Part shown: positions 41,404 through 42,521 of the stretch, in pieces
Layout: each line of letters begins with the position of its first letter
How positions within the stretch are numbered: position 1 is the stretch's first letter
Assembly (NCBI GenBank): GCA_977020255.1
Contig: CDROCS010000007.1
Span: forward strand, 62,001 to 126,000
Source: Obrimoposthia wandeli
Lineage: Eukaryota
DNA: 64,000 bases
Direction of reading: 5' to 3'
Program-made: the position numbers and the translations under genes
The notes under the pieces: generated by a model
The model's input: the letters and a program-made list of their open reading frames with translations, nothing else
The model's database searches: none
What the model was told of the DNA's origin: nothing

Positions 41404-42100
41404 ATGAATATCTCTCCAGCGATACGAATGCTGAGAGGAAAGAAACTGGCGAAACTATCCATCGTCGATGAACAAATAGAGAAGCGATTAGAAAGACTAA
41501 AACTTGAGGAGTCAGAATTGATGCCACCAATGAGTGAGATAATTCCAGGTATTTTATACCTCGGAAATGTGGAAGATGCAACAGACGAAAAGAAACTGTT
41601 GGAACAAGGGATAACATATGTGATCAATGTTACAATGAATCACGAATCGCGATACCAGACAATCAGAGCTATGACATTAAGAGTGAAAGACTCAATGGAG
41701 GCTAATCTTCTCGAATGGTTTGGAGAAACAAACGAGATAATTTACAAAGAACTCCAAAATCAAGGAAAAGTGTTGGTACATTGTCAGAAAGGAATCTCTA
41801 ACCTTGGTATTAGCATATCTAATAAAGAATAGACGAATGCAGGTACTAGAAGCGCTGAAATATATACAAGAAAGACGAAGTATCGCGAACCCAAACCTTA
41901 ATTTTTTGGGACAATTGTCAAATTATAAACTCCTGTTGCAAGAACGGAGACGGATGGATGACATCCCTGAGGATCCAAAGGAAAATAATTTCCTCCAATC
42001 ACTATCGTTGACCGAATTATTCTTAGCAGGAGTCGACAAAATTACGAATAATGCGAGTATTTTATGTTACCCAGGAGATATAGATACTGCTGGATTATAG
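41404..42100 (+). pseudogene. Dual-specificity protein phosphatase (VH1/DUSP-like) domain with a frameshift in the P-loop
   Basis: EIIPGILYLGN, GITYVINVT, LRVKDS, GKVLVHCQKGIS, TLVLAYL, RRSIANPNLNFLGQL; apparent 8-nt loss at 41800. Confidence 0.9.
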
Positions 42101-42521
42101 TTCCACAGTATCAAACAGTGAGTAATTAACATTGTTGAAGTCGAAAACAGAGATAATCAGTCTATGTCAAAATACTGAAGATGACACTACACGATATACA
42201 TGCTTCAAATCGGAGGTAAACGACACAGCTGCACACCTGATGAAGTTGACTCAAACAATCCAAGCCGAAGTCACAGAAGGAAACGGCGTTCTGATATATC
42301 AGAAAAAAGGTACAATGTTAGCACCTACCATAGGTGTATCCTTGTTGGTAGAGTACCATGGTCACACACCAGAAGAAGCGATGGTCTACATCAAACAGAA
42401 TAGACCAGATACGGAATTCAAACCGTTACTCGTTCAAGAAATAGATAAATACTCCGAAAGAAGGAAACAACAACGAGAAATTAATGAGGATACAACAACA
42501 GTACCCAGCTATCAGTACTGA
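42000..42521 (+). CDS. Second, degenerate DSP-like domain (pseudophosphatase)
   Basis: GNGVLIYQKKGTMLAPTIGVSLLVEYHGHTPEEAMVYIKQNRP aligns with the DSP C-terminal signature but lacks the catalytic Cys and Arg. Confidence 0.65.

Follow-up and report, generated by a model that had tools for sequence, protein, structure and literature searches.

Signalling phosphatases carried as cargo are better known from large DNA viruses, and among cellular enzymes the receptor PTP (D1-D2) and CDC14 (A/B) families are tandem proteins that combine an active phosphatase domain with a dead one. The poxvirus phosphatase VH1 is described as a single-domain enzyme whose dephosphorylation of STAT1 depends on dimerization (PMC5732261). 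For LTR retroelements, published passages describe captured genes in the rotifer elements Vesta, Juno and TelKA, whose cargo includes a GDSL esterase and a DEDDy exonuclease (PMC5408684), an orchid gypsy element that carries AlkB (PMC9289625), and env-carrying Ty3/gypsy errantiviruses with a fusogen ectodomain of the F or gB type (PMC13524379). The planarian giant Ty3/gypsy element Burro/GYPSM1 is described as encoding a cargo-laden gypsy polyprotein with regulatory domains, and in this it resembles the element considered here (PMC6431247).

In this study, we analysed a stretch of 64,000 nucleotides from Obrimoposthia wandeli (contig CDROCS010000007.1; hereafter the window, in which all positions are given), which is eukaryotic, AT-rich, and rich in repeats. 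It contains a dual-specificity phosphatase (DSP) domain, DSP1, followed by a pseudophosphatase domain, DSP2. We interpret the pair as accessory cargo carried by a large, now dead Ty3/gypsy retroelement, and hold our overall account of its history and role with moderate confidence.

Organization of the retroelement and its surroundings

The features of the element are as follows:

32725-51703, + strand: Ty3/gypsy LTR retroelement copy 2, 5′-truncated and decayed (Pfam, homology, A-rich skew at 33-47 kb)
33414-33458, + strand: Gag CCHC zinc knuckle (PF00098, E 1.8e-6)
34294-34524, + strand: possible ubiquitin-like domain in the Gag-protease interval, weak (mapped from copy 1)
35917-36183, + strand: aspartic protease (PF13975, E 9.4e-6)
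36500-39990, + strand: RT-RNase H-integrase, heavily frameshifted (homology with copy 1 and a relative)
40072-41247, + strand: post-integrase beta-rich region containing three short repeats (shares the pol frame in copy 1)
41317-41526, + strand: acidic linker, then basic/helical lead-in to DSP1, with an ATG at 41404 (translation)
41527-41929, + strand: DSP1, catalytic domain of MKP/atypical-DUSP type (Pfam DSPc, DUSP10 alignment)
42002-42440, + strand: DSP2, pseudophosphatase domain (Pfam DSPc, DUSP28 alignment)
42522-43916, + strand: membrane-protein cassettes in the frame of the DSP2 C-half, with a Tyr/Pro-rich tail (translation)
43916-45063, + strand: probable type I membrane protein, with a frameshift near 44800 and a hydrophobic segment at 44949-44999 (translation)
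45250-45536, + strand: RING finger 1, frameshifted, resembling RING 2 (PF13639, E 0.004)
45600-45905, + strand: RING-H2-type finger 2, open, GC3 0.71 (PF13639, E 8e-9)
46253-46786, + strand: RING finger 3, open, GC3 0.68 (PF13639, E 7.6e-8)
47057-51703, + strand: 3′ LTR with TG...CA ends and an internal 47-bp tandem array (terminal-repeat matches)
48392-51047, - strand: solo LTR from a related family, nested inside the 3′ LTR, with a 57-bp array (4-bp target-site duplication)
15131-22624, + strand: copy 1 of the same element, a segmental duplicate that ends ahead of the DSP cassette

A Gag knuckle followed by protease, RT, RNase H, and integrase in that order places the element in Ty3/gypsy, and a terminal repeat with TG...CA ends is present, along with a short target-site duplication on the nested related solo LTR. 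Similarity to two related terminal repeats sets in at 47057 and marks the beginning of the 3′ LTR, both ends of which have 72-79% matches in related terminal repeats elsewhere. A primer-binding site near 48420, which would have followed the 3′ LTR, was ruled out, as the motif lies inside the nested solo LTR; tRNA-Thr ends appear in PMC13524379. Both copies are 5′-truncated inside gag, and a 195-bp repeat array occupies both flanks of copy 2, ending at 32724 and resuming at 51704. The two copies arose by a tandem segmental duplication (4945-19703 versus 22624-37349, ~17.6 kb, 98.4% identity). In both, the integrase core is missing ~130 aa (at ~21155 and ~39617); relatives match residues 1-11 of the integrase-tail ORF and resume ~130-140 aa later. 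Because this deletion is common to both copies, the element is dead regardless of the break in DSP1 described below.

The copy-1 equivalent of the possible ubiquitin-like domain matches Pfam ubiquitin at E 0.038, and 8 of 11 PDB rows for the same region are ubiquitin variants, ISG15 or SUMO, none of them significant (E 0.12-1.2). Ahead of the protease, a short signal-peptide-like stretch recognized by eye may be an env remnant, and a BCL-2-like domain sought ahead of env/protease gave no significant match, the all-helical model being poor (pLDDT 44). The post-integrase region matches no Pfam family and its structure model is unusable (pLDDT 32); in copy 1 (21608-22624) it contains a short beta-hairpin-like motif three times, ~110-140 aa apart. 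The membrane cassettes at 42522-43916 are broken up by three stops (42519, 42615, and 43293), contain hydrophobic segments at 42654-42704, 43275-43325, and 43686-43736, and match no Pfam family significantly and no env family; downstream of the DSPs, four hydrophobic segments in total lie above threshold. The cytoplasmic tail at 43740-43916 is Pro/Tyr-rich and by eye resembles signalling or ligase-binding motifs. Pfam detected no BIR, MATH, or ankyrin domain in the ORFs of the 5′-truncated element, Rfam gave no match in 32-52 kb, a tRNA search found none, a plasmid comparison returned no match, and NCBIfam was uninformative.

Elsewhere in the window, a solo LTR of a related family lies at 22707-24312 (- strand), with a duplicate near 5028-6667 (- strand), and related LTR fragments occur near 3142-3276 and 58156-58220; together, these solo LTRs and terminal fragments imply repeated activity of the lineage. 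Degraded fragments of a family B DNA polymerase at 52760-53852 (weak Pfam matches) are possibly a Polinton/Maverick remnant. An intronless gene with BIR and RING domains (IAP-like) and internal stops, at 61353-63615, lies outside the LTR element, is perhaps part of a Polinton-like remnant, and is adjoined by two short ORFs without Pfam matches. A Lys/Ser-rich open frame of 457 codons with an 18-bp repeat (55997-57370, - strand) has no Pfam match.

The two phosphatase domains

DSP1 is split between two frames at its catalytic loop. Its first half (41317-41829) covers DSPc profile positions 1-85 with 58.6 bits (E 7e-16) and its second half, in the next frame (41741-42097), covers positions 87-131 with 37.9 bits (E 2e-9), each exceeding the Pfam DSPc cut-off of 33.5 bits; the edges of both DSP domains were derived by hand, with a possible error of a few bases. 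For structure-sequence comparison, the halves were joined with an X at the break, and the joined domain aligned with DUSP10 at 79.9 bits (E 2e-21). In the catalytic loop, the alignment leaves a gap of three residues and one base over, which makes the loop a net 8 nt short. The His-Cys pair at 41779-41784 (Cys at 41782) and the general-acid Asp at ~41689 are retained, and the break at 41797-41800 leaves the Arg position absent and the frame shifted. The present copy thus has the Asp and the Cys without the Arg, and hence no intact CX5R loop. The sequence-only reading had proposed that an 8-nt loss in this loop removed the Arg and shifted the frame, as both the DSPc halves and the DUSP10 alignment now confirm.

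The top solved-structure matches of DSP1 are cellular MKP/DUSP domains (DUSP10, DUSP4, and DUSP1). Neither 41317-41829 nor the post-integrase region upstream of it contains a Pfam match to a rhodanese/KIM docking domain, and without a rhodanese domain DSP1 is not an MKP proper. The earlier comparison with VH1-type DSPs is not supported: against 79.9 bits for DUSP10, chain 2q05 (database label 'dual specificity protein phosphatase'), which we take to be vaccinia VH1, scores 29 bits and is the last of the best 60 DSP1 structure matches listed. A tblastn search of the window for a second DSP copy returned self-matches only.

DSP2 matches DSPc positions 36-118 at 23.1 bits (E 7e-5), under the 33.5-bit cut-off, and its C-half aligns with DUSP28 at E 3e-5, ungapped across 94 residues. 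In its loop (42297-42320), Tyr-Gln replaces His-Cys, so that Gln occupies the Cys position, and Leu occupies the Arg position, which leaves no CX5R motif. The general-acid column is without Asp in two alignments, with acidic residues close by, and inspection revealed no hidden intact loop in another frame. These loop residues and the DUSP28 alignment bear out the earlier description of a degenerate loop within a DSP fold signature, which had overlooked that DSP2 is also broken. The frame of its putative N-half differs from that of the C-half and is closed by stops at 42098 and 42119, with a frameshift near 42140-42185; this half is only inferred, since 109 of 1000 shuffles reached its score, which leaves it without significance when taken alone.

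In comparison with a local DSP profile, built from 27 domains aligned from 14 proteins, DSP2 scores 31 bits versus 120 bits for DSP1. The two domains are identical at 32 of 123 positions (26%), and the local score of DSP2 to DSP1 is ~44, as against up to 86 to unrelated DSPs. A recent duplication of DSP1 was therefore ruled out as the source of DSP2, which is no nearer to DSP1 than to unrelated DSPs.

The age of the catalytic loss in DSP2 can be set against the decay of the copy. Five in-frame stops in 836 codons of cargo correspond to ~3.6% decay, with wide error, and one of them lies within a hydrophobic segment, a position expected of a lesion. In copy-1 pol, there are 3 stops in 2006 codons; the several-fold higher stop density of the cargo implies that some of its stops may be true ORF ends. 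At 3.6% decay, the three base changes from Cys to Gln have p ~3e-6, and hits on all three catalytic codons of DSP2 have p <= 0.001, which places the loss of catalysis in an active ancestor. A codon loss combined with a codon gain would yield the same loop, yet this too needs several events. DSP2 is a pseudophosphatase whose divergence goes far beyond the roughly 1-4% decay of the copy, and its catalytic loss predates that decay.

An alternative for this domain is that DSP2 is a functionless drifting relic, retained solely because an open frame was required for translation to get to the downstream membrane proteins. The weak profile scores (23 bits in Pfam, 31 bits locally), the insignificant N-half, and the lack of any special closeness to DSP1 are all in keeping with it. 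Against it stand the ungapped 94-residue alignment of the C-half, the retention of core hydrophobic and helix positions while the catalytic ones are lost, and the recurrence of mixed active and inactive tandem DSPs, in that 7 of the 27 profile domains (14 proteins) have Ser for Cys. We regard this relic reading as the less probable one, and treat DSP2 below as a putative former partner of DSP1.

Relatives, proposed history and alternative readings

A search with the RNase H-integrase region gave 312 long relatives, of which the 120 listed were considered; eleven of these 120 are 42-57% identical. For the Pol tree, 88 rows were kept and 33 (including P0163) dropped for short coverage, and the first 60 were used; in the resulting FastTree phylogeny, the window and ten of these eleven relatives form one branch with SH-like support of 99. 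Hydrophobic segments after the integrase were present in 9 of 10 located clade members and 0 of 20 located outsiders, a count that excludes the 90 of 120 relatives that the pattern did not locate. The Pol frame of the clade runs past the integrase into cargo and membrane proteins. One relative combines ankyrin repeats with a second protease in the post-integrase slot. Among P0155, P0156, and P0158, the variations are a second protease behind the integrase, ankyrin repeats (present in P0156), and a membrane cassette ahead of the protease, and their clade is apparently a modular, undescribed lineage. The window's membrane cassettes match the clade tails marginally (12 bits at best, probably via the membrane segment).

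None of the 120 listed Pol relatives (of 312) has a DSPc annotation, and none of the 15 DSP matches scanned has RT, RNase H, or integrase. The DSP protein search yielded one match among 1722 candidates, of cellular type, and a near-length search yielded 6 among 362, at most 38% identical; the 132-aa N-part of DSP1 has matches of 28-47% identity among the 150 listed of 994 representatives. An intact DSP1 was found neither in the window nor in the protein searches, and the latter returned no DSP-bearing retroelement relative, an absence that is weak evidence because the searches covered proteins of up to 2000 aa or were based on a word index. A genome scan with the Pol alignment gave 16 stretches at 3 loci, two of them short and one just 34% identical. 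The contig of one clade member (L001:1742-2776) carries a bacterial MAG label, probably through eukaryotic contamination, and protein P0005 combines several DSP domains with a DDE_1 transposase domain, as either a real fusion or a gene-model artefact.

With regard to history, it is highly likely that DSP1 was an active enzyme, captured long ago from a cellular gene of DUSP/MKP type minus the rhodanese docking domain, that DSP2 lost catalysis during the active life of the element, and that the 8-nt loss in DSP1 is one of many post-insertion lesions. It is fairly probable that the pair was made within a Pol-extension polyprotein, remained cytosolic, and was freed by the element protease or by signal peptidase; the domains would have been positioned on the cytosolic side, just before an internal signal/anchor segment. 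Joining the post-integrase region to DSP1 in such a polyprotein needs a putative frameshift. More tentatively, DSP1 may have acted on host stress and immune kinases, keeping the cell permissive, with DSP2 as a docking or regulatory partner. Its substrates would be phospho-Thr/Tyr loops of JNK/p38-type host kinases, and DSP2, working beside the RING ligases and membrane proteins, might stand in for the docking domain that DSP1 lacks. A target in host signalling is favoured by the host-facing character of the neighbouring cargo and by close Pol relatives without a DSP in the same protein. Both the ancestral activity of DSP1 and its host-signalling role are what we infer from sequence, and immune antagonism by the pair would be an argument by analogy.

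Alternatively, the phosphatase may have served the element itself by dephosphorylating Gag or other particle proteins during assembly and maturation, instead of acting on host signalling. A position in a Pol extension would presumably place the DSPs in the particle, the MAPK-docking rhodanese domain is absent, and viral DSPs can act on virion proteins. This version is nevertheless unlikely: none of the eleven close Pol relatives has a DSP in the same protein, which implies that a DSP is not needed for replication, and the RING fingers, the membrane proteins with Tyr-motif tails, and the ankyrins of a relative suggest host-facing roles. The functional alternatives and the possible assembly error considered next are not mutually exclusive.

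The break in DSP1 could also be an error of assembly or consensus, in which case the genome itself would carry an unbroken DSP1 here. In a comparison of the two copies, the ~3.9 kb of copy 2 at 37.3-41.2 kb show 74 indel events, 8 of them at least 4 nt long, and 68 substitutions, versus 14 indels and 53 substitutions across 23-36 kb. This indel-rich zone looks like unpolished long-read consensus. It is flanked by short local duplications (36486-38173 and 40162-40476), themselves probably assembly artefacts, and its noise persists to the last comparable base at 41247, 550 nt from the break. On the other hand, the cargo contains frameshift-free stretches of 276, 297, and 1752 nt, which are improbable at the indel rate of the noisy zone (p 0.007, 0.005, and 2e-14, respectively) and so place the DSP region outside it. 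The five nearby in-frame stops are substitution-type lesions, and the integrase deletion would leave the element dead anyway. We consequently judge the break to be probably real decay and the assembly error improbable.

The composition of the DSPs also bears on their origin. Both have an A fraction of 0.39 and an AT skew of 0.23-0.33, compared with 0.39-0.40 and 0.26-0.30, respectively, in gag-pol, a shared composition that argues against a neighbouring host gene. GC3 is ~0.7 in RING fingers 2 and 3 versus 0.3-0.4 in the rest of the element, which suggests that the DSP capture is older and those RINGs more recent. The location between the integrase and the 3′ LTR (47057-51703), together with the element-like composition, upholds the initial proposal that the DSPs lie inside a retroelement. 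That they derive from an adjacent host gene or a separate later insertion, as the cellular DUSPs among their best matches and the end of copy 1 short of the DSPs might suggest, is very unlikely, given that the domains are unbroken by introns, share the composition of the element, lie upstream of its 3′ LTR, and share a frame with the cassette that follows, and that the segmental-duplication breakpoint truncates copy 1.

Taken furthest, the cargo reading would make this element a member of a new, large, virus-like Ty3/gypsy lineage with a host-manipulation kit resembling that of large DNA viruses: a membrane-tethered, D1-D2-like DSP pair silencing stress kinases, three RING E3 ligases, and receptor-like proteins, cut from or made beside Pol. 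We consider this picture quite doubtful.

Comparison with known retroelements and phosphatases

The element shares ubiquitination-related cargo and a long LTR with Burro/GYPSM1, and the weak ubiquitin-like match and signal-like stretch in its Gag-protease interval would fit the order described there (PMC6431247). For the BCL-2-like and env domains of Burro, no significant match was obtained in the element. Compared by description only, it differs from Burro in that its main cargo lies downstream of the integrase (PMC6431247), and the BIR, MATH, and ankyrin domains reported for the Burro polyprotein were not found inside the present truncated element (PMC6431247). The word phosphatase does not occur in the Burro/GYPSM1 review (PMC6431247). 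The rotifer and orchid elements are similar in having captured enzymes downstream of or beside pol and in having transmembrane ORFs (PMC5408684, PMC9289625); the passages concerned mention no element-borne phosphatase (PMC5408684, PMC9289625). As compared with the errantivirus as described, the present element shows no env family match in its membrane cassettes, only the short signal-like stretch before the protease (PMC13524379). Passages of the literature searched, including PMC8532177 and PMC10799480, contain no LTR retrotransposon with a protein phosphatase, although the domain tables for Burro may list one. Cargo-laden Ty3/gypsy elements are already known, and the phosphatase-pseudophosphatase pair is a new cargo, represented by a single dead copy.

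If intact copies exist, they would permit a direct biochemical test of whether retroelements rewire host kinase signalling, so far merely suggested for apoptosis and ubiquitin domains, and they would provide a natural example of pseudoenzyme evolution within a mobile element.

Among phosphatases, the element's DSPs share the fold signature with cellular MKPs and atypical DUSPs, and DSP1 also has the Asp, the Cys, and a DUSP10-like C-terminal motif. Unlike cellular DUSPs, they lack a rhodanese/KIM domain, are intronless and retroelement-borne, and include a dead domain as partner; they are at most 47% identical to the proteins found, among the matches listed. Multi-DSP proteins (P0020 and P0108), receptor PTP, and CDC14 likewise have an active domain beside a dead homologue, as in the DSP1-DSP2 arrangement. 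These tandem phosphatases are, however, cellular genes, and DSP2 at 26% identity is no recent duplicate of DSP1. Poxvirus VH1 resembles the pair as a DSP carried by a virus-like genome and may be a functional analogue (PMC5732261). VH1 is described as a single-domain dimer acting on STAT1, whereas the element has a tandem pair of apparently cellular MKP/DUSP origin (PMC5732261).
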